DNA of 64,000 nt from Microcoleaceae cyanobacterium (GTDB lineage: Bacteria; Cyanobacteriota; Cyanobacteriia; Cyanobacteriales; Microcoleaceae). Below are positions 46,149 to 57,209 of the stretch, piece by piece (the stretch's first letter is position 1; the number at the start of each line of letters is the position of its first letter). The stretch spans positions 1-64,000 of the forward strand of contig JBOFUV010000022.1 in assembly GCA_051652765.1 (NCBI GenBank). Direction: 5' to 3'. Made by a program: the position numbers and the translations under genes. The notes below the pieces were generated by a model. That model had not been told where the DNA came from and did not search any database. It was given only the letters and a program-made list of their open reading frames with translations.

Positions 46149-46716
46149 GTCTTTTAGCTATATTTCACGACTGACAAACTCCTAGATGCCCCTGATTAAT
46201 CAGACCATTGATCTATAAAACTAGCAGTGCAACCTTCAAATCCAAATCTGCCCCGAGAAAATCAGAACTGACAGCTAAGCCCTACTTTAGTATGGTGTAA
46301 GTTCGTGAAGAAAACATGAGGCTTTTATGAAGAAAAGTAAAGTTTTCTAGATTTTTCTTACCCAGTTGCAGGACTGTGTTGTCGCAGTTCTTGTTTCCTG
46401 TAACCTTCTGTCAAAGCTACACAAAGCTATGCCAATCATAAGTATTGATGTAGCTAAAAACTAAAATCTTTGATTATTTGTGTAGCTTCGCGCCAAATCC
46501 TTAATAAAAAGAATCTGTGTAACACTTGATACCCTTAAGACAATTGTATTCAAAAAACTTGATGTCAGCCCACAATTTTATAAAGCTCTTGTAAAGAACA
46601 GAAGCAAAAGTGTGAAGCTTTTGTAAAAGTGCTTTTTTCATCTTCACGGTTTATTTGTCTCTGGTCATTGGTGGTGTGCCCTGCTAACTTCCTGAGTACT
46701 CACTGTAGTTTGATTC

Positions 46717-47060
46717 GGCGTTGCTGAAAGAGTAATGCTTGGTTTGGTATTACATATAGTGGGATGAAATGTCCTTAATGTGATTCAACTCAAACAAGCA
46801 AAAACAGACACCGTCTTGACAGACAAGGCTTACAAGTGTAAGCAGTGTGGTCGTCAATTCCTCAAATCTTACAGACCTTGGCACTACTCGCAGGAAGTCA
46901 AGCAACCGTGTATCAAAATGTATCTCAACGGTATGGGACTGCGAGGCATCGAACGAGTCATCAAGATTGGATTCGAGCAACCAGACATCAAATAGAGGAT
47001 GCCCCAGAGGTAGAAGAGATTCCAGAACTCACTGACCTCGATGAACTACAAAATTATCTT
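46717..47060 (+). mobile_element. IS1-family transposase remnant
   Basis: YKCKQCGRQF zinc ribbon, YSQEVKQPCIKMYLNGMGLRGIERV HTH, then a frameshifted EIPELTDLDELQ; GGCGTTGCTGAA end at 46717. Confidence 0.85.
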
Positions 47061-47097
47061 GAAGCAGGCGATCTATTAGATGAATTCTTAGATCATT

Positions 47098-47153
47098 TTC
47101 TAAGTGTTAAGTTCTAAGTGTTAAGTTCTAAGTGTTAAGTTCTAAGTGTTAAG
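47098..47153. repeat. Tandem repeat, 4 x TTCTAAGTGTTAAG
   Basis: Four exact 14-mers. Confidence 0.95.
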
Positions 47154-47220
47154 TGTGAGCAAGCGATCGCCGAATTAGACCCTGGAAAAGTAGCTGTTCA
47201 AGGTTGGGTGAAATGCGAAT

Positions 47221-47286
47221 GCGGGTTTAGTATGAGATCAATGCGGGTTTGGTATGAGATCAACGCGGGTTTGGTATGAGATCAAC
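47221..47286. repeat. Tandem repeat, 3 x 22 bp GCGGGTTT(A/G)GTATGAGATCAA(T/C)
   Basis: Units at 47221, 47243 and 47265; related reverse-strand copy at 13258-13289. Confidence 0.9.
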
Positions 47287-47486
47287 GGGCAAATGCTCTG
47301 CCATCAACTTGATCTGAGTGTGAGATCAATGGGGATTCGATGAACGATCAATCTGAACTTAAACGTAACCCACTATGGATCTATTCAATGATTGATCTAG
47401 AAATAGCTTCTTCCATCATAGTGCTTGAGTCGAATCACATCGAGCACCTGATCCAACAGCTTTTTGGGGCGTTGTTCCATTGCGGA

Positions 47487-47716
47487 ATAGACGGAAAGTT
47501 TCAGTCTAAAATTTATAAATCGATGCTAAGCCGAAAAAACCTGAATAACCTGAGGAAATATACGGAAAATTTCCATCTAATCCACTATTTTGGACTGGTT
47601 AGACTGCAAGTTTCAGCCTAATCTGCTTTAAAGTGCGCGTTAGACTGAAAAAGTCAGACTAACGTACTCAAATAGTGCGGTTAGACTGAAAATTTCAACC
47701 TAATAACTAGTTATGC
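47487..47716. repeat. Array of 23-bp imperfect palindromes (TTAGACTGAAAnTTTCAGnCTAA consensus) at 41-bp period, ending 6 nt before a GTTATGC cassette junction
   Basis: Units at 47558, 47599, 47640 and 47681, plus one at 47487. Confidence 0.85.
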
Positions 47717-47914
47717 CGCAAGTCCTCGGTGGGGACGTAATCTAGAGACAATGGGTGAGATGAGATCGCTCAACCCGCCCTAGAGGATTATCGGCATTAC
47801 TTGCTATATTTGTTGCTCTGGGATAGCAATATGTAAGTCAGAATCAAGAATAAGTGGCAATATTAGGAACTAGCCCTCAATGTGCCCAAGCTTCATGATT
47901 CTAGGAGTCGCGAT

Positions 47915-49645
47915 ATGTCTAGATTGCTGGTGACACAGTACCAGGCGGAGGTTGAAAAGATCATTCGCTATGGCGGTTCCAAGAAGGAAACCAGCATTCG
48001 CAATGCCTTTGAGCGATTGTTGAATGACTATTGCAAGCCCCGCAACTATCTGCTGATCCCAGAACTGGCCTTTAAGACCAAGTTCAATACGACAGTTGTT
48101 CCCGATGGCACGGTGAAGGATGCCATTCGTCTGGAGCATGGCTGGTGGGAAAGTAAAGACCCATACGACAAGCTTGATGTAGAAATCGAGAAGAAGCTAG
48201 AGAAGGGCTATCCCGATGAAAATATCCTGTTTGAAGACTCCCAAGCAGCGGTACTAATTCAGCACAGTCGAGAGCAGTTGCGCGTTTCTATGCGGGATGC
48301 GGCAGCGCTAGATGGGCTAATCAGCACGTTTGTAGACTACGAACGACCCGAAGTGCGCGACTTTCGGGCGGCGATCGTCAAGTTTAAGGAAGATGTCCCG
48401 CATATTTTGGAAGCCTTGCGGAGCATTATTGCTCAGCAGGAGGAGAGTAATTCCCAATTTAGAGAACGCCGCAACACCTTCCTAGAGGTGTGTCGCCAGT
48501 CGATTAACCCGGAAATTGAGATCTTCGATATCCATGAAATGTTGATTCAACATATTCTCACGGAGGATATTTTCACCAATATTTTCCATGAGTCGCAGTT
48601 TCACCGGGAAAACAACATTGCGCGCGAACTGTCGGAGATAATCAACACCTTTTTCACCGGAGCGACCCGCAAAAACACGCTCAAAAGCATCGAACACTAT
48701 TATGCGGTGATTCGTCGCCATTCGGAAAACATTGTCAACCACCACGAAAAGCAGAAGTTTCTTAAGGCGATCTACGAGAATTTTTACAAAGCCTATAACC
48801 CTAAGGCGGCGGATCGGTTGGGGATTGTCTATACGCCCAATGAAATCGTCCGCTTCATGATTGAAAGTGCGGATTATTTGACCCATAAGCACTTTGGCAA
48901 GTTGTTGAGCGATCGCGGAGTGGAGATTCTTGACCCTTGCACGGGGACAGGCACCTATGTGACGGAACTGATTGAATATTTGCCAGCGGATAAGCTAGAG
49001 CATAAATATAAGCACGAAATTCACTGCAATGAAGTGGCGATTTTGCCCTATTACATTGCTAATTTGAATATTGAGTTTACCTATCAGCAAAAGATGGGTA
49101 AGTACGAAGAATTTAAAAATATTTGTTTAGTGGATACATTGGATCACTGCACCTCTGAAGGACATCAATTTGATCTATTTGCCATGAGTGTGCAAAATAC
49201 GGCACGGATTCAGCAGCAAAATGAAAAGACCATCTCGGTCATCATTGGCAATCCACCCTATAACGCCCACCAGGAAAACTTCAACCAGCGCAACGCCAAT
49301 CGCCTTTACAAAGGGATTGATAAAGCCATTAAGGAAACCTACATTAAAGAGGGAACGGCTCAAAATCAGATCGTTGTTTACGATATGTACACCCGCTTCT
49401 TTCGTTGGGCATCAGACAGGCTCGGTCAAAATGGCATTATTGCCTTTATTACCAATCGATCGTTTATTGATGCTAAAGCATTTGATGGCTTTCGTAAGTG
49501 TATTGAAAGAGAATTTGATTATGCATACATTGTCGATATTGGCGGGGATATTCGTTCTGGAGACACCAGTGGTAATGTTTTCGATATTAAACTAGGGGTT
49601 GCGGTGATGTTTTTAGTAAGAATAAAAAAGGAGAAAAGAGTATGA
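47915..49645 (+). CDS. Restriction-modification enzyme, N-terminal part: PD-(D/E)xK nuclease-like domain + N6-adenine methyltransferase (Type IIG/IIL, Type ISP-related, no helicase)
   Basis: VPDGTVK...WWESKD; GIVYTP; ILDPCTGTG; IGNPPY; AGGAG before ATG 47915. Confidence 0.85.
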   Translation: MSRLLVTQYQAEVEKIIRYGGSKKETSIRNAFERLLNDYCKPRNYLLIPELAFKTKFNTTVVPDGTVKDAIRLEHGWWESKDPYDKLDVEIEKKLEKGYPDENILFEDSQAAVLIQHSREQLRVSMRDAAALDGLISTFVDYERPEVRDFRAAIVKFKEDVPHILEALRSIIAQQEESNSQFRERRNTFLEVCRQSINPEIEIFDIHEMLIQHILTEDIFTNIFHESQFHRENNIARELSEIINTFFTGATRKNTLKSIEHYYAVIRRHSENIVNHHEKQKFLKAIYENFYKAYNPKAADRLGIVYTPNEIVRFMIESADYLTHKHFGKLLSDRGVEILDPCTGTGTYVTELIEYLPADKLEHKYKHEIHCNEVAILPYYIANLNIEFTYQQKMGKYEEFKNICLVDTLDHCTSEGHQFDLFAMSVQNTARIQQQNEKTISVIIGNPPYNAHQENFNQRNANRLYKGIDKAIKETYIKEGTAQNQIVVYDMYTRFFRWASDRLGQNGIIAFITNRSFIDAKAFDGFRKCIEREFDYAYIVDIGGDIRSGDTSGNVFDIKLGVAVMFLVRIKKEKRV

Positions 49646-49968
49646 TACAACCAACCATTCTAGAAAAGCTGGAAAAGCTACCTGAATCACTCCAAACAGA
49701 AGTACTCCATTACATTGAATTTCTGCTGGAGAAACAGACAACACGACCTATCCAAGAAGAAACGCCAAAGAAACGCCGTTTGGCTGGTTCTATGAAAGGC
49801 ACTTTCGTTTTACCATTACCAGAGGGTTTCGGTGCATCTTTGGAACTAACGAACCCTGCCGATCAAGCTGCTGACGAAAAAAAGTATGGCTATGGGAGCT
49901 TAGCTGGGAAAATTGTGATGTCTGATGATTTTGACGACCCTTTAGAAGACTTGAAGGATTATATGTAG
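49642..49968 (+). CDS. DUF2281-like antitoxin
   Basis: LEKLPESLQTEVLHYIEFL...GKIVMSDDFDDPLEDLKDYM. Confidence 0.85.
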   Translation: MIQPTILEKLEKLPESLQTEVLHYIEFLLEKQTTRPIQEETPKKRRLAGSMKGTFVLPLPEGFGASLELTNPADQAADEKKYGYGSLAGKIVMSDDFDDPLEDLKDYM

Positions 49969-49969
49969 T

Positions 49970-50359
49970 ATGACAGTCCTTTTAGACACTCATGTCGTGC
50001 TTTGGTATATGACAAAGAATCCTAGATTAAGTCTGAAAGCTAGAGAAATAATTGAAGCGAAATCTGGATTAATTTTCAGCATGGCTAGCCTATGGGAAAT
50101 CACCATTAAGCTCAATATTGGAAAGCTTCAGATTGATTGCTCTTTCGATGATTTAGTAGATCGAGTAGCTGTCATGAGGGCTGAGATTTTGCCAATTGAT
50201 ATTGAAGACACCCGAACTTATCTTGGTTTACCTTTGCTGTCTGATCACCGTGATCCCTTTGACCGAATTTTAGTGGCTCAAGCAATGAATTATTCGCTAG
50301 ATATTGTGAGCGGAGATAACAAGTTTGATCTGTATCCAATTCAGCGTGTGTGGTCATGA
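49970..50359 (+). CDS. PIN-domain (VapC-family) toxin
   Basis: LLDTH, SLWEITIK, HRDPFDRILVAQA, SGD. Confidence 0.92.
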   Translation: MTVLLDTHVVLWYMTKNPRLSLKAREIIEAKSGLIFSMASLWEITIKLNIGKLQIDCSFDDLVDRVAVMRAEILPIDIEDTRTYLGLPLLSDHRDPFDRILVAQAMNYSLDIVSGDNKFDLYPIQRVWS

Positions 50360-51693
50360 GCAAAGCGAAGATCTTTTACTTTACGTTGCAGGATAAGCAG
50401 ACGAAGGAAGAAAAGCTCGACTGGTTTGAACGGACGCGGTTTGAGCAAATTCCGTTTGATCACATTACGCCCGATCAGAAGGCGAATTGGATTAATTTAA
50501 CCGATAACGATTTTGATATTCTTTTGCCGTTAATTGATAAAAGTGTAAAAGATGGTAGTTCAGAAGAAGCCATTTTTGTTCTCTTTTCAAGAGGAATTGA
50601 GACTACTAGAGATGAATGGGTTTATGACTTTAATCAATTAAACCTTGAGACAAAAATAAAATTCTTCATTGAGAAATATAATCTATGCATAAAGGAGGGT
50701 GAGTATAACTCAGAGATTAAATGGAGTTCATCACTAGATGAGCATCTGAAGAATAAACTCAAATTAAGTTTTCGAGCGAATAAGCTGATTACTATTGCAT
50801 ATAGACCTTATACTAAACAGCACTACTATGCTGATAAATTGTTGAGTCATAGATTAACGCAAAATCATTATGAAATTTTAGGGAAAGAGCTAAATGGTGA
50901 GAACCTTGTAATTTGGTTTAAGGTTGGTAGTGCTTGGGACTTTTTTGCTCTTAGTGTTAATTCTCTAAGTGATCTTTTGCCTCAAAGCGGGTCTCAATGT
51001 CTTCCCCTCTGCCGCTACGACGAAAACGGAAACCGCATCGACAACATCACAGACTGGGGCTTAACGCAATTCCAGACCCACTACAGCGACCCCACCATCA
51101 CTAAAGAAGCCATTTTCCACTACACCTACGCCGTTCTCCACCATCCCGCCTACCGCACCAAATACGAACTCAACCTCAAACGCGAATTTCCTCGCCTGCC
51201 CTTCTATGCCGACTTCCACCAATGGACAACCTGGGGCAAAGCCTTAATGGACTTGCACCTGAATTATGAAACCGTCGAACTCTATGGATTACGACGGGTC
51301 GATGTGGGACGCAAACAAGCAACCAGTGACTCGCCAATACAAGGAACATTGATCCTCACCGACCCACGTGATTCAGCCAAACCCACTAAACGCACCACAC
51401 CCAAAGCCAAACTCAAAGCCGACAAAACCGAAGGCAAAATCATCCTTGATACCGAAACCACCCTGGAAGGAGTCCCCGCCGTTGCCTGGGACTACAAACT
51501 CGGCAACCGCTCTGCCTTGGAATGGATACTTGACCAATACAAAGAAAAGACACCCAAAGATCCCACGATCGCCAAACTCTTCAACACTTACAAGTTTGCC
51601 GATTACAAAGAACACGTCATCGATTTGCTGCAACGGGTTTGCACCGTCAGCGTCAAAACAATGGAAATTATTCAACAGATGCCAACAGAGTGA
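50356..51693 (+). CDS. Restriction-modification enzyme, C-terminal specificity part (Type ISP/LlaBIII-like C-terminal domain)
   Basis: GIETTRDEWVY, YRPY, DNITDWGL, IFHYTYAVLH, REFPRLP, WDYKLGNRSALEWILDQY. Confidence 0.85.
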   Translation: MSKAKIFYFTLQDKQTKEEKLDWFERTRFEQIPFDHITPDQKANWINLTDNDFDILLPLIDKSVKDGSSEEAIFVLFSRGIETTRDEWVYDFNQLNLETKIKFFIEKYNLCIKEGEYNSEIKWSSSLDEHLKNKLKLSFRANKLITIAYRPYTKQHYYADKLLSHRLTQNHYEILGKELNGENLVIWFKVGSAWDFFALSVNSLSDLLPQSGSQCLPLCRYDENGNRIDNITDWGLTQFQTHYSDPTITKEAIFHYTYAVLHHPAYRTKYELNLKREFPRLPFYADFHQWTTWGKALMDLHLNYETVELYGLRRVDVGRKQATSDSPIQGTLILTDPRDSAKPTKRTTPKAKLKADKTEGKIILDTETTLEGVPAVAWDYKLGNRSALEWILDQYKEKTPKDPTIAKLFNTYKFADYKEHVIDLLQRVCTVSVKTMEIIQQMPTE

Positions 51694-51753
51694 GGAAGCA
51701 ACCATTGAATTGATAAATCAACCACTTGAAACATTAGGAACTGAACCCCCACC

Positions 51754-52332
51754 ATGACACAGGCACTTGAACAGCGAATCTACACCCCCGATGAGTACCT
51801 TGAACTTGAACTTGCATCTGAAACCCGAAGTGAATACCGCAATGGAGTTATTATTTCTATGACCGGGGGCACGCCTGACCATAATGAATTAGCAATTAAT
51901 CTTGCATCCCTCCTCAAATCTGCTTTGCGAGGCAAAGCCTATAGGATTTTCGGAGCCGATCAACGGCTTTGGATTCCTAATCGCAATCTTTACACCTATC
52001 CCGATGTTATGATTGTCGAAAAACTGCTACAGCTTCAAACAGGGTGTACCGACACCGTGACAAATCCCTGCTTTATTGCTGAAGTGCTATCCAAATCAAC
52101 CCAAGATTATGATCATGGCGAAAAGTTTTCTGCTTACCGTACTATTGACAGCTTTCGCGAATATCTGCTCATCGATCAGTACAGTATCCATATAGAACAC
52201 TATGTGAAAACGGCTGCTAATCAATGGCTGCTATCAGAATACGATGATCCGAATGTCACATTGTCCTTGAGTGCATTTGAAGCTCAAATCGAAATCACTG
52301 CTCTCTATGAAAACATTGACATTGATGCTTGA
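51754..52332 (+). CDS. Uma2-family endonuclease
   Basis: RSEYRNG, YTYPDV, AEVLSKST, DHGEKF, EYLLIDQ. Confidence 0.9.
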   Translation: MTQALEQRIYTPDEYLELELASETRSEYRNGVIISMTGGTPDHNELAINLASLLKSALRGKAYRIFGADQRLWIPNRNLYTYPDVMIVEKLLQLQTGCTDTVTNPCFIAEVLSKSTQDYDHGEKFSAYRTIDSFREYLLIDQYSIHIEHYVKTAANQWLLSEYDDPNVTLSLSAFEAQIEITALYENIDIDA

Positions 52333-52357
52333 TAAAACAGTGAGGGCGATCGCAGCG

Positions 52358-52462
52358 GCATAACAAGTCGTTGTAACGGAATTTTGAGAGCGGATTTGAG
52401 ATTGTGGGTGGGTTTCAAAAATTATCGCCGCTCTCAAAATCCGCTGAAATTGGTCGTTATCT
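52358..52462 (+). other. attC-like integron cassette recombination site 1
   Basis: R'' GCATAAC ... R' GTTATCT; stem CGGAATTTTGAGAGCGG / CCGCTCTCAAAATCCG with one unpaired extra base; 105 bp. Confidence 0.8.
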
Positions 52463-52586
52463 TGCCAGCGCACCACAGTTCCCTGTGGAGTTGAACCGAA
52501 GGGCGACTGACTATGTTGAGAGAGGGTTTGCATCATCTGCGCTGGTCGTTTTGCTGAGTTAAGAAACAGTCAGCTCGCCCAAGTCA

Positions 52587-52673
52587 AGCTAACCAATCAC
52601 TGCACTCGACCCGCAATAGTATTATTGGATTAATTCTGAAGCTGTTGGCGGCGGGTGAGTTCAACCGTTGGGC
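52587..52673 (+). other. attC-like site 2
   Basis: AGCTAAC-CAATCACTGCACTCGACCCGC ... GCGGGTGAGTTCAACC-GTTGGGC; 87 bp. Confidence 0.8.
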
Positions 52674-52717
52674 TGCTTTCTTGTTTTAATGACATTCATA
52701 TTAGATGGTGAACAATT

Positions 52718-53113
52718 ATGAGTTCAAGTCAGCAGTTTCTGCAAAATTTATACGAAGCCTTCAACAAAGGCGAGATTGAAACAATCATCTCGGTGATGCA
52801 CCCGGACGTGAAATGGGCGAACGGGGTGGAAGGCGGTTTCGTTTATGGACGCGACGCGGTGCGCGAATACTGGATCAATCAATATAAGGTTATTCAAGTG
52901 CAGCTTGAAACCTTAAAATTCGAGACAGATGAAAACAATCGAAATGTCGTTACCGTTCATCAAATCGTCAGAGATTTGCAAGGCAATTTGCTCGCGGATG
53001 CAACAATTCAGCAAATCTTTACCATTGAGAATAGTTTGATTAGTCTTTATGAAATTGGCGAAACCGAAACAATCCAAGAGATGATTCAAAAGACGAGAAC
53101 TCCCAATGAGTAA
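52718..53113 (+). CDS. SnoaL/NTF2-like protein (cassette gene)
   Basis: LYEAFN...MHPDVKWAN...GRDAVREYW...VHQIVRDLQG. Confidence 0.85.
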   Translation: MSSSQQFLQNLYEAFNKGEIETIISVMHPDVKWANGVEGGFVYGRDAVREYWINQYKVIQVQLETLKFETDENNRNVVTVHQIVRDLQGNLLADATIQQIFTIENSLISLYEIGETETIQEMIQKTRTPNE

Positions 53114-53115
53114 TT

Positions 53116-53220
53116 GGGAAGGCAGTTACAATTCGAGCCGTTGCTTTTACCGATCGCAATGAAGAGGGGTTAGTAACTTCGGTCAGATTCTATACAGACA
53201 CTTCACCGCTATTTGCATAA
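53116..53220 (+). pseudogene. C-terminal fragment of a second SnoaL-like gene
   Basis: GKAVTIRAVAFTDRNEEGLVTSVRFYTDTSPLFA*, no start, stop just before attC 3. Confidence 0.5.
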
Positions 53221-53225
53221 TCGCA

Positions 53226-53313
53226 GCCCAACAATCCGCTTGCACTCGACCGTTTAGAACCTTTTCGTTGAATCCGAGAGGGTACTGGCGGCGGGTGAGT
53301 TCAACCGTTGGGC
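53226..53313 (+). other. attC-like site 3
   Basis: GCCCAAC ... GTTGGGC; 3' ~30 bp identical to site 2; GCAGCCCAAC complements the cassette start GTTGGGCTGC at 52667. Confidence 0.85.
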
Positions 53314-53375
53314 TGCTTCATATCTCGGTAGAGACAGTGGCGAGAGATAGACTGTTAGTATTTCCAAGTGAGTAG

Positions 53376-53849
53376 ATGAAGTACAGAACAGCCGATGAAA
53401 GTGATGTAGTTACTCTCGCAGAGATGCGGTGGGAATTTCAGACTGAGGACAATGACAACCCACCCATTGTTAGCAAGACTGAATTTGTAGAAGTTTGTAG
53501 TAATTTCCTACGACAGGGGTTGATCCAGAAGAACTGGGTTTACTGGATAGCCGAGGTAGAGAGAGAAATCGTTTCTCACATCTTTGTACAACGGGTTAGG
53601 GGAGTTCCAAGACCGTTCTGGCTAAACAATGCCTACGGCTATGTTTCAAATGTCTATACCAAGCCTGCCTACCGCAGACAAGGGATTGGAACAGAATTGA
53701 TGCAGCAAGTGCTGAATTGGGCAAGGCATCAAGAGATCGATGTTCTCATCGTCAGTATCAGTGAAGAGAGCGTAACCTTCTATGAACGTGCAGGCTTCAC
53801 AGCCAAGAATGAATGGATGGAGTGCATAATTAAGAACTATCCCGGTTGA
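53376..53849 (+). CDS. GNAT family N-acetyltransferase (cassette gene)
   Basis: NVYTKPAYRRQGIG, FYERAGF. Confidence 0.9.
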   Translation: MKYRTADESDVVTLAEMRWEFQTEDNDNPPIVSKTEFVEVCSNFLRQGLIQKNWVYWIAEVEREIVSHIFVQRVRGVPRPFWLNNAYGYVSNVYTKPAYRRQGIGTELMQQVLNWARHQEIDVLIVSISEESVTFYERAGFTAKNEWMECIIKNYPG

Positions 53850-53857
53850 GAGAGCAA

Positions 53858-53924
53858 ATGTTCCAAATTGATTTCACACCAGATGCGTTAGAGGATTTAC
53901 AACTTTTTAGACCATATGAACAAC
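53858..53924 (+). pseudogene. 5' fragment of a RelE/ParE-like toxin gene, cut at an inverted attC
   Basis: MFQIDFTPDALEDLQLFRPYEQ ends at the minus-strand GTT of attC 4. Confidence 0.6.
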
Positions 53925-54006
53925 GGCCTTGAGTTGAGCCGACGCAGATAGACTTTGGAACTCAGCCGATCACTTTAATACGTTCGGCTCCAACGATTGG
54001 TTAGCT
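53918..54006 (-). other. attC-like site 4 (inverted)
   Basis: Minus strand AGCTAAC-CAATCGTTGGAGCCGAACG ... CGTCGGCTCAACTCAAGGCC-GTTGTTC; stem with one extra A; 89 bp. Confidence 0.78.
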
Positions 54007-54221
54007 GGCTGGCGCTGAGCAACCTGCATCAATAGTCGTAATGCCTCGTTTACAGATTCTTCCGTAGGAAAAGCTTGAGATACGTCAGAATCAAGAAGAA
54101 CTAGATTTGTACCTGCTCGATAACGTTCAACATATTTTCCTCTTACGCCCCCACTGAGATGAGAGAAGTCATACTCAGGACGTAACTCATCTTCCATTTC
54201 GGCATCAATTTTCCTGTTCAT
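53970..54221 (-). CDS. BrnA-like antitoxin
   Basis: EDELRPEYDFS...GVRGKY...VLLDSDV...SVNEALR; overlaps brnT. Confidence 0.8.
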   Translation of the reverse strand: MNRKIDAEMEDELRPEYDFSHLSGGVRGKYVERYRAGTNLVLLDSDVSQAFPTEESVNEALRLLMQVAQRQPANQSLEPNVLK

Positions 54222-54480
54222 AGAACCTCCTTTCTGGTCGAGTCGCTTTTCGGGCGCTAATAATTCGTATGGTTTCTCCTCGGTCAGCATGAGCAACCAT
54301 TAGAAGCTGTTCAAACCTAGATACACCAATAATAACGTAACGGCTCTCTTCAATCGAATGATCTGGGTCGGGAAAGGTTACTGACAGCGAATCGTTAAAT
54401 ACAGTCGCCGCTTCTTCAAAGGAAACACCGTGTTTTCGATAGTTTGACTCAGCTTTGTCTGGGTTCCACTCAAATTCCAT
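54205..54480 (-). CDS. BrnT-family toxin
   Basis: MEFEWNPDKAESNYRKHGVSFEEA, IRIISARKAT. Confidence 0.92.
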   Translation of the reverse strand: MEFEWNPDKAESNYRKHGVSFEEAATVFNDSLSVTFPDPDHSIEESRYVIIGVSRFEQLLMVAHADRGETIRIISARKATRPERRFYEQEN

Positions 54481-54651
54481 GCGACATTGCTCACTATCCA
54501 TCAACCAAGTCTACCAACTAAATTTTCAGTCACACAATATAAATTTCATCTTTACGCAAAACTCTTACAAAGCACCCTGAAACACGATCTAGCAAAACGT
54601 CAAACTCGCTGTTTGGCATTCTCAGATCAAATGGAATCATATTAATTGGGA

Positions 54652-54837
54652 GTTCTGTATCCACGGCGAGGAATATGATTTATGAAAACCATTACCCTTC
54701 CAGAAAATCTTGCTGAGATTCGCTTGGTGTTTGAGCAAGCCAATGATGAAGACGTAATTATAAAATTGGCTGACGGGCGACAGTTCATGTTAAGTGCAAT
54801 TATCGTTTTGCAATTCAATTGTTTCAGCCTCTTATGA
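54652..54837 (+). pseudogene. 3' tail of the relE-like toxin (…IHGEEYDL*) and its truncated antitoxin (MKTITL… from 54682)
   Basis: ATGA overlap at 54682; MKTITLPENLAEIRLVFEQANDEDVIIKLADGRQFMLSAI, then loses similarity. Confidence 0.5.
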
Positions 54838-54851
54838 TACTAAACCAATTG

Positions 54852-55871
54852 CTAGCGTAGTAATTTCATTCCAGATGCTTTAGGGTCAAAGCCATCAGGA
54901 AAACGAGTAGGGCAAGGGTAAGCAGGAGAGGAAGTAATATCTAGACAGATGTTTTTGGGTGTTTTTGCGTCGGAGTAAAACGCCCCTTGCAGGTTAGCTC
55001 CATCCAGTTTTGCCCCTTGCAGATTGGCTCCACCCAGTCTTGCCCCTTGCAAATTGGCTTCCAACAGTCTTGCCCCTTGCAGATTAGCTTGCCACAGGAC
55101 TGCTCCTTGCAGATTAGCTTCAACTAAGCTGGCTCTGGGCAGTCGAACCTTTGCTAGATAAGCCTTTGCCAAGTCCACCCCATCTAAACTTTCAGCTTCC
55201 CACTTGGAACATAGCCAATCTTCAGATACACAGATCCAGGGGAAATGCAAACGCCAATTAGCCCCTGGTGAAGCATTCAAAAACTCTAGAGCAAGTATTC
55301 GTCCTCCGTTGCCACTTTGCCCTTGGGCGTTAGTTATCGTCTGCCACGCCAAATAAACTTGAGACTCACGACGCTGTTCCTCTAAACCGATATAAGTGAG
55401 TGCAGCAAATATAAGACCTAGGTTACCCAACAAACCCAACAAGCTGAGCAATGCCTGGTTCTCTCCCCAAGACAGTATGGGTTCCCAGATCCGCTTCTCC
55501 ATCTGGGTGAAAGGTTGAACGATGGAGTAAAGCTTTGACTTTAACGGAGGTTGTTCTGTCTCTTGCAGGCGCTGCTGAGAATCGATCAAGGTTTCAGAAT
55601 AATCAGGCTTGAGCTTTTTGGGGGTTGGCGTAGATGGCTGTTCATTACCTTTAGCATTAGCTGAATGGCACTGATCACGATCAGCCGCAAACTCCAAGCA
55701 GGCTCTTATATCAGTTTCTGTCAACTCCGGAAAATCGTCCATAATATCAGCGATAGACATACCAGCTGCAAGCCAAGCTAAAACCTCGTAAGCTGTAATC
55801 CGCGTCTGGCGAATGCAGGGCTTACCACCACGCTTATCGGGCTCAATCGTAATAATGTCGCGATAGCTCAT
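54852..55871 (-). CDS. DUF433 domain fused to a TM + pentapeptide-repeat protein
   Basis: IEPDKRGGKPCIR...DFPELTETDIRACLEFAAD; TM; ANLQG repeats. Confidence 0.8.
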   Translation of the reverse strand: MSYRDIITIEPDKRGGKPCIRQTRITAYEVLAWLAAGMSIADIMDDFPELTETDIRACLEFAADRDQCHSANAKGNEQPSTPTPKKLKPDYSETLIDSQQRLQETEQPPLKSKLYSIVQPFTQMEKRIWEPILSWGENQALLSLLGLLGNLGLIFAALTYIGLEEQRRESQVYLAWQTITNAQGQSGNGGRILALEFLNASPGANWRLHFPWICVSEDWLCSKWEAESLDGVDLAKAYLAKVRLPRASLVEANLQGAVLWQANLQGARLLEANLQGARLGGANLQGAKLDGANLQGAFYSDAKTPKNICLDITSSPAYPCPTRFPDGFDPKASGMKLLR

Positions 55872-55911
55872 AATATGGATAGGTTGTTTGTATATGCCTG
55901 AGTCTAGAGCA

Positions 55912-55998
55912 GGCTAACACCTCGCCGCAACGGACGGACGTTAGTTGGTCGGTCGAGAGCTGGAAGTTACTTGCCGCCGCTGAAGCGGAACGTTAGCT
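55912..55998 (+). other. attC-like site 5
   Basis: GGCTAAC-ACCTCGCCGCAACGGACGG ... CCGCCGCTGAAGCGGAAC-GTTAGCT; 87 bp. Confidence 0.72.
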
Positions 55999-56008
55999 GG
56001 ACAGGATC

Positions 56009-56470
56009 ATGACGAAGCTCAAAAATCGAGTCGGTAGCCAGGTCACCCTCTTCGGTCTGATAGCCTTCCTTCTCGTAACTCCAGCTTGTAATGGGAGTGA
56101 TGACCAACACCTCGCTGGACTCATCGCCGCTGAAGCTCAAAGAAGTGACCCTTCTATTGTTAGAATGTCTGCGCTGACTTCGTTTCCGTGGGAAAGGCTC
56201 TTCGTCTTTGCACCCTACACGACTGCTGAGGCAATCGAGGACGACCTAGGTTTTCAGTGGTCTCGATCAGACATGATCGAGATGGCCGACCATTTCTCTC
56301 TTTTGGTCTTCGTGAAGGACAAGAGTGTGGTGCGCTTTGTCGCGAAGTCCCGTAGCGGTGGAGACTTTGCGGAGTCATACCGTCAGGGTGGATTCTCGCG
56401 GGATGAAGCAGTGTTCCGTTGTTCAAAGGATTCGGCTGGGTGGCTACACTGTGTGGGAGGAGCCAGCTAA
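56009..56470 (+). CDS. Hypothetical lipoprotein (cassette gene)
   Basis: Lipobox-like LVTPAC; starts 8 nt after GTTAGCTGG; stop TAA lies inside the complementary CCAGCTAAC. Confidence 0.78.
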   Translation: MTKLKNRVGSQVTLFGLIAFLLVTPACNGSDDQHLAGLIAAEAQRSDPSIVRMSALTSFPWERLFVFAPYTTAEAIEDDLGFQWSRSDMIEMADHFSLLVFVKDKSVVRFVAKSRSGGDFAESYRQGGFSRDEAVFRCSKDSAGWLHCVGGAS

Positions 56471-56527
56471 CAGGCGGGTATAGTTCTGCACACATCTCCT
56501 CTGTCCACTCGCACCACAGGTCATGGC

Positions 56528-56564
56528 TTGGGAAAACTATTTGGGAAAACTATTTGGGAAAACT
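56528..56564. repeat. About 3 x 13-bp tandem repeat TTTGGGAAAACTA
   Basis: TTGGGAAAACTATTTGGGAAAACTATTTGGGAAAACT around a stop codon. Confidence 0.8.
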
Positions 56565-57209
56565 GTAGGATAACAGAACTGAGGTGGATTGCACCCCATT
56601 GGAATCGGTCATGGACTTAACCAACCCTAGATGATTGACATACCAGTAAGTCTTCTTCACTAAGGCTCCCCCTTGAATGACATCTGTCACCACTTTCATG
56701 GCCTGAAACTTACCCGCAGGAACATTCACTTCTTCAGCGGCTGCAACCTGGCTACTTTCAGAAATCTCAATTTGGTTCATACCTGTGCCTTGCCATTTCC
56801 AGGTATCGGCAACTGCCAAAGGATTCCGCAAGTACTGCCGAGTTGGCTGGAACACAGCTTCCTGCTTATTATTCACATAAAGCTCTTTGTGCATCAGCAC
56901 CCATCCGGGCGGCTTAGAATACCAGTCCTGAATGGGAAAACCAGAGCTAATTTCAACTTGGTAAAGAAAAGAGCCATCCGGTTGCTTTTCAAGTTGCAGA
57001 ACTTTTTGCGACCAGTTGGATTTTCCCCCGGTGTGACTTGTAGATTCATAGTTCCAAACTGCACCGACGGGCAACGGAAAATAATCTGGAGGGGGAACTT
57101 CGGGATACTGTGCTGAGGTTGTGGTGATCGTTAGCAAGAACATTGTCACAAACAAAACAACCCAAATCCAAAATTTTTTGATGAAAGAAATCAAAGAATT
57201 TTTCTTCAT
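56550..57209 (-). CDS. Hypothetical secreted beta-rich protein
   Basis: Signal peptide; DYFPLPVGAVWNY, EEVNVPAGKF, YWYVNHLGLVK. Confidence 0.75.
   Translation of the reverse strand: MKKNSLISFIKKFWIWVVLFVTMFLLTITTTSAQYPEVPPPDYFPLPVGAVWNYESTSHTGGKSNWSQKVLQLEKQPDGSFLYQVEISSGFPIQDWYSKPPGWVLMHKELYVNNKQEAVFQPTRQYLRNPLAVADTWKWQGTGMNQIEISESSQVAAAEEVNVPAGKFQAMKVVTDVIQGGALVKKTYWYVNHLGLVKSMTDSNGVQSTSVLLSYSFPK

Follow-up and report, generated by a model that had tools for sequence, protein, structure and literature searches.

A phased array of alternating boxes between an integrase gene stump and integron cassettes in a cyanobacterium is best explained as an extended attI site

In a 64,000-nt stretch of DNA from a Microcoleaceae cyanobacterium (termed the window, always meaning this whole stretch), a series of palindromes with a 41-bp period stands where a recombination site would be expected, just ahead of a cassette that begins at GTT. 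Is this array a recombination site and, if so, of which kind? A sequence-only reading had offered two answers, a branched attC variant of about 240 bp with a decayed R'' box, or an attI-like site with iterated recombinase-binding repeats, and had raised the possibility of a new class of long, multi-hairpin recombination site. Its description of the DNA is accurate, and the fold scores, recurring homologues and shuffled controls given below show that the pattern is no product of chance. Five 23-mers begin at 47487, 47558, 47599, 47640 and 47681 (start spacings of 71, 41, 41 and 41 bp), and the three spacers between units of 41-bp period are each 18 bp long. The terminal unit ends 6 nt before GTT (47710), and the first unit likewise begins 6 nt after CAT (47478-47480). 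Against their own reverse complements the five 23-mers match at 18, 16, 18, 16 and 18 of 23 positions. The 71-bp gap is occupied by a degenerate sixth unit at 47526-47548, flanked by spacers of 16 and 9 bp. The features of the locus are as follows.

47163..47170 (no strand): GCGATCGC octamer, which we take to be HIP1; left-flank identity with contigs C45, C50, C97 and C101 stops here
47218..47417 (no strand): dispersed 22-bp tandem repeat with a head of ~70 bp; abuts the intI stump, and the repeat is found alone elsewhere too
47418..47480 (minus): intI 5' stump, codons 1-21 (MEQRPKKLLDQV...RLKHY), with CAT at 47478-47480 as its ATG
47487..47509: array unit 1, 6 nt to the intI ATG; its boxes are at -223 (forward) and -200 (reverse), counted from the crossover
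47526..47548: degenerate sixth array unit; forward box 5.9 bits, reverse box -2.6 bits
47558..47662: three array units of 41-bp period, with boxes at -152/-129, -111/-88 and -70/-47
47681..47703: terminal array unit; forward box at -29 (the attI1 DR1 position, there -31) and reverse box at -6, the L box of an attI simple site
47704..47716 (plus): 6-nt spacer and R box, with the crossover G/TT at 47710/47711
47711..52462 (plus): first cassette, 4.7 kb; type ISP RM in two ORFs with DUF2281/PIN between them, and Uma2; attC at 52358-52462
52457..55999 (plus): further cassettes, namely one without an ORF (attC 52587), SnoaL (attC 53226) and GNAT, then an inverted BrnT-type toxin-antitoxin and a DUF433/pentapeptide gene; attC 55912

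The left boundary of the array is the start of an integrase gene. The CAT at 47478-47480 had been regarded as the place of a decayed AAC, but it is the start codon of a 21-codon intI stump. From 47480 leftward, the minus strand encodes MEQRPKKLLDQVLDVIRLKHY, the N-terminus of integron integrase. We assign this start codon because the stump is 90% identical to nt 1-63 of a near-full-length intI (one internal TAA) in the same-genus genome G002, where that gene directly adjoins a homologous array. The stump also matches residues 1-25 of IntI P0001 at 68% (tblastn), and longer sister stumps in its own genome match TIGR02249. Near-full-length or full intI genes lie beside homologous arrays in G002, G017 and G506, and the own assembly carries stumps only. 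Its 158 contigs yielded no intact intI with PF00589, TIGR02249 or tblastn, and the fragments reach residue 117 at most. No array was found in G001, another genome of the same genus.

The right boundary is a cassette junction. Of 22 array ends identified genome-wide, 20 carry GTT; the other two carry GCT and GTC, respectively. The sequence beyond differs among copies. In the window, the reverse complement of the R box sequence recurs at 52356 as the R'' box of the first attC. An exact reverse complement of the first 9 nt was found farther downstream for 9 of the 22 own sites, compared with 24 of 462 cross-pairings; the other 13 sites have no exact R'' match. Sites of the attC type were located with an nhmmer profile seeded with 16 own-genome sites, which gave 89 matches in the genome and none in the reversed genome. 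Two hand-made heuristics were dropped, the first for missing known sites and the second for noise (224 matches, and 54 in a 1.5-Mb control). With the profile, a same-strand attC lies within 15 kb downstream of 17 of the 22 own sites and upstream of 3. Five sites have no downstream match, three of these being no farther than about 2 kb from the end of their contig. Four more attC follow the first cassette in the window. The R'' recurrence, together with the downstream attC and cassettes, identifies G/TT at 47710 as the integration point. Cassette core sites resemble the array as well: 29 of 78 carry both the C and the G of the box described below, versus 6.2% of 102,759 genomic GTT.

Since the array occupies the interval from the intI start to the G/TT of the first cassette, its position is that of an attI. 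All features of an attI that could be looked for are present, in a defective integron: an adjoining, divergent intI 5' end, a simple site with a 6-nt spacer and G/TT, and attC cassettes with a matching R''. The intact intI of a complete integron is absent from the own assembly.

We examined whether this architecture recurs at other integrase genes by comparing 89 regions, comprising 88 intI-upstream regions and the window. Loci with a short upstream sequence or an N-terminally cut gene were left out, and one of the three source sets of intI-upstream regions contributed 69 of its 80 loci. A box of ~19 bp with the consensus GGG-nn-RTTA-KR-C-R-GAAA was derived from 250 boxes of 40 regions. Successive boxes face opposite ways and follow one another at intervals of about 20.5 bp, which generates 23-bp palindromes and a 40-41-bp period. 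A junction could be called in 40 of the 89 regions, where the boxes occupy conserved offsets of -6, -29, -46/47, -69/71, -87/90, -109/113, -127/130 and -150/153; the other 49 regions had no junction at the chosen threshold. Boxes of one unit are most often spaced 23-24, and those of adjoining units 16-18 or, occasionally, 9.

When a junction was not required, at least four phased boxes were present in 49 of 86 intI-upstream regions, a count that is partly circular because 40 of the loci scored had also supplied the matrix; 20 shuffles per region never reached four. All but two of these 49 regions fall in one essentially cyanobacterial IntI clade of 55 rows (SH-aLRT 89 in a quick tree), and the two outside it belong to Anaerolineae and Nitrospinota. 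IntI relatives in named records are also mostly cyanobacterial. A box score of 0 was returned by five loci of family f33 (small genomes with GC-rich upstream DNA), by class 1 and by most non-cyanobacterial loci; because the matrix is in part circular and clade-specific, such zeros indicate the absence of this particular box only. When searched for as a pattern, the terminal unit was found in 62 of 401 genomes of the class, versus three control matches. Eight copies were counted in G730, six each in G216, G758 and G806, and five on the single contig of G506. The one match among viral contigs lies in an ORF without an array and was judged a chance hit. In G016, three full or near-full intI genes (L026, L037 and L040) occur within 12 kb; they belong to a different IntI clade and have a shorter upstream region.

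A textbook integron attI contains two to four integrase boxes. The array shares with attI1 its place, flanked by a divergent intI and by the first cassette, and the TAA-N6-G/TT geometry of the simple site. In attI1, as read from a plasmid record (locus L166), forward boxes lie at -50 and -31, a reverse box at -6 and a further box at +1. The terminal unit reproduces the DR1-L-R arrangement with a shift of 2 bp (-31 in attI1, -29 here), and on our box matrix the attI1 DR1 scores 5.6 bits, DR2 -2.9 and L -2.6. In other respects the two differ. The four boxes of attI1 span ~65 bp, whereas about 12 boxes with a 40-41-bp period span ~230 bp here. At -50 attI1 has a forward box, whereas a reverse box lies at -47 in the array, whose orientations alternate. 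Finally, the array site is dispersed in many copies.

The array is likewise distinct from other known elements. It has the palindromic look and the GTT crossover of attC; in contrast, it has neither an R'' box nor a single long hairpin, and the attC profile built from its own genome has no match on it. In CRISPR arrays, unique spacers of ~26-72 nt lie between near-identical repeats, whereas the spacers here measure 9-18 bp and are conserved between loci. A plasmid iteron region is contradicted by the alternating boxes and by the neighbours, which are an intI stump and cassettes; no rep-like ORF was seen on inspection. No Rfam family matched within 46500-57000.

Published accounts of attI describe a simple site accompanied by at most two direct repeats (10.1101/2022.02.06.479319, PMC8946536, PMC3146285, PMC8876359, PMC3108266, PMC4889954, PMC4792948, 10.1101/2022.09.11.507474, PMC12901181, PMC12614218), and recombination of attI1 with attC is favoured by DR1 and DR2 (PMC8946536). 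A further likeness is to the attG sites of IntI1, which are double-stranded targets that carry GWT where crossover takes place and, at positions 6-9, CRGM (10.1101/2022.09.11.507474). The C-R-G-A of our box aligns with that CRGM, which was tested there for attG hotspots; it is present in 142 of 250 boxes, although these were picked by a matrix that favours CRGM. According to the same paper, the motif is dispensable in the right half of attI1 (10.1101/2022.09.11.507474). In contrast to attG sites, which are single scattered genomic spots, the motif is here arrayed in phase beside a true crossover. Finally, CALINs and delta-attI-type cassettes (PMC4889954; PMC12901181) are comparable as integrase-less cassette clusters and displaced attI-derived sites, but the clusters found here keep a full attI array and often the intI 5' stump.

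Taken as a whole, these features are very probably those of an extended attI of a mainly cyanobacterial IntI clade that acts as double-stranded DNA. Of the two alternatives first proposed, the attI-like site with iterated recombinase-binding repeats thus appears correct, given the intI-to-cassette position and the conserved alternating boxes, to which integrase would bind. The notion of a new class of multi-hairpin site gives way to that of an attI variant. On duplex DNA, every box is predicted to be occupied by an IntI monomer. The terminal two boxes and the R box would form the DR1-L-R set that recombines with folded attC. The upstream boxes may load or hold extra integrase as an enhancer or synapse scaffold, in the manner of DR1/DR2, and would rarely be cleaved; neighbouring boxes are separated by some two helical turns, and the gaps between units exceed the active spacer by roughly one turn. 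Boxes fill the whole interval between the intI start and the crossover, so IntI bound to them may also repress its own promoter and that of the cassettes.

A different assignment of the upstream boxes should be considered. The site could be an attI of which IntI uses only the terminal L and R boxes, with the upstream boxes serving as operators through which a host protein of regulatory or architectural type (LexA-like, CRP-like or nucleoid-associated) controls the divergent promoters. The array does span the whole promoter region, and GGG and GAAA, at the two ends of the box, lie outside the classical 7-bp IntI core. Such an arrangement would also accord with a near-consensus TTGACA-N16-TATAAT that overlaps the terminal unit in loci L025 and L036. 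The upstream boxes, however, show the consensus also seen in the L box and in the R boxes of cassettes, and in G506 a cassette junction lies at an internal reverse box (see below). The cyanobacterial LexA motif was found in 6 of 172 loci, none of them holding own-genome arrays, and a LexA box in these arrays was therefore rejected. On this evidence we regard host operators as unlikely. The TTGACA-N16-TATAAT sequence is found in other genera (L025, L036 and L029), where it replaces part of the -29 box; no sigma-70-like promoter was called within 47400-47900 of the window.

The palindromic units might instead make the array a single-stranded, multi-hairpin substrate, either branched like attC or cruciform. 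The 256-nt array region does fold better than 200 of 200 shuffles on both strands (z of -3.1 for the bottom and -4.0 for the top); of the two strands the top folds better, and the minimum-energy structures have an ensemble frequency of 0. We then compared the complementarity of arms within and between units. For 88 units in 29 arrays, same-unit arms were complementary at 2.24 of 4 variable positions and other-unit arms at 2.16 (P = 0.10), and arms from different arrays at 1.61. A de-duplicated set (69 units, 22 arrays) gave 2.22 versus 2.13 (P = 0.048; positions 3-4 alone, P = 0.032), a slight same-unit excess that speaks for hairpins, as does the presence among homologues of perfectly palindromic units of different sequence. 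No such excess was detected in the spacers (P = 0.22-0.81). Since same-unit arms scarcely pair better than other-unit arms, the symmetry is mostly an array-wide consensus read both ways, and any hairpin-type excess in these alignments would be slight at most. In addition, an attC-like fold would need an R'' partner; the array has none, the CAT at its place being the intI ATG, and the attC profile passes it over. A hairpin substrate, including the branched attC of about 240 bp, is thus highly improbable. Similarly improbable is that the DR1-L module was merely expanded in tandem, without selection and under concerted evolution, so that the terminal unit alone matters. In its favour, own-genome copies vary from about one to six units, with shortened ones also heading cassettes, and accessory repeats are absent from most attI sites (PMC3146285). 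Against it, many cyanobacterial families retain the offsets and both half-boxes although the intervening sequence has diverged, and the shortened copies adjoin dead integrase genes.

Returning to the extended attI, its history in this genome can be outlined. Here the site would have outlived its integrase, a stump-plus-array unit having been copied to about 20 loci that each head their own cassettes. The own assembly contains 18 intI 5' stumps, of which 12 end at nt 63, fused to the dispersed 22-bp repeat. This common junction points to copying or conversion after truncation. None of the 18 stumps is cut at a GTT site, and this origin of the truncations was discarded. The left ends of the array copies vary, falling within the 22-bp repeats or at the GCGATCGC octamer, which is frequent in host DNA. 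As speculation, we favour a spread of the unit in which IntI acted at the right end and the left end recombined through repeats. The array flanks are not syntenic in G001 and G002, where the left-flank gene has no attC match after it. The network would be dormant unless IntI is supplied by unassembled or incoming DNA.

Own-genome arrays comprise two sequence subtypes with apparent hybrids (C103, C67) and unit deletions, which suggests recombination between copies. Exchange of cassettes among the dispersed sites is suggested by the ORF-less cassette of ~210 bp (window 52457-52667), which also occurs in C50, C67, C116, C34 and C103 and thus in at least six arrays, twice in first place.

The left flank has peculiarities of its own. 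The non-coding 22-bp tandem repeat, with its conserved head, is present in the window and at ~25 other loci, either alone, near attC clusters or on intI stumps. Farther left, a remnant at 46780-47153, presumably of an IS1-like transposase, has no Pfam match and is followed by a 14-bp tandem repeat.

The genome of G506, assembled as a single contig, gives the most direct sign that an internal box has been used. It carries one intact intI with an array (L204) and four copies without intI (L203, L205, L206 and L207). All four satellites part from the intact copy exactly at one G/TT, that of the reverse box near -168, beyond which a leftward cassette follows. Two of them extend to the attC of that cassette (E = 1.7e-12; R'' complementary at 9 of 10 positions), and the other two are interrupted after 300 nt by an ORF, in our judgement IS1-like. 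A cassette inserted at an internal, reverse-facing box therefore seems to have detached the four satellites from intI, as a single event in one genome. The same route was rejected for the satellites of the window's genome, where 0 of the 22 sites have an opposite-strand attC within 4 kb upstream. A related case of another kind is locus L079 (G002:C63, about 1939-2029), in which a complete attC is fused to intI exactly at a G/TT inside the gene (nt 209); judged from this junction, the integrase gene appears to have been cut by its own type of reaction.

These observations permit a broader but tentative reading for many filamentous cyanobacteria, which as a joint proposition we consider possible though somewhat doubtful, in which a distributed integron, a two-faced array and an autoregulatory IntI operator are combined. 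One IntI, possibly acquired transiently, would serve many dispersed satellite attI platforms. Integration at reverse-facing boxes would also free a platform from intI and thereby aid its spread, and the array might double as an IntI operator where LexA control is missing.

We found no description of such arrays or of cyanobacterial attI in the literature covered, which lies mostly outside subscription journals and excludes supplements. What is new in the attI family is an array of this length, with phased boxes of alternating orientation, and the many copies in which it is dispersed. As attI is the least predictable part of integrons, a conserved phased array provides a searchable signature, and it reveals that many integrase-less cassette clusters of cyanobacteria keep a full docking site. 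According to PMC4889954, IntegronFinder identifies attI by exact match to classes 1-3 only and pseudogenes through C-terminal and catalytic profiles; in this mode it would miss both the array and the intI 5' stump. The natural series of one to six units is suited to the study of accessory IntI sites such as DR1/DR2 in their possible roles as enhancer, topological filter or autoregulatory element.

Among the first cassettes at these sites are genes for restriction-modification and toxin-antitoxin systems, and the network may thus reshuffle defence functions. In the window, the type ISP restriction-modification gene (47915-51693) consists of two ORFs around a DUF2281/PIN toxin-antitoxin-like pair. 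The cassette at 53918-54504 carries a BrnT-type toxin-antitoxin, and its attC (53918-54006) is on the minus strand, opposite to the rest of the cassette array.
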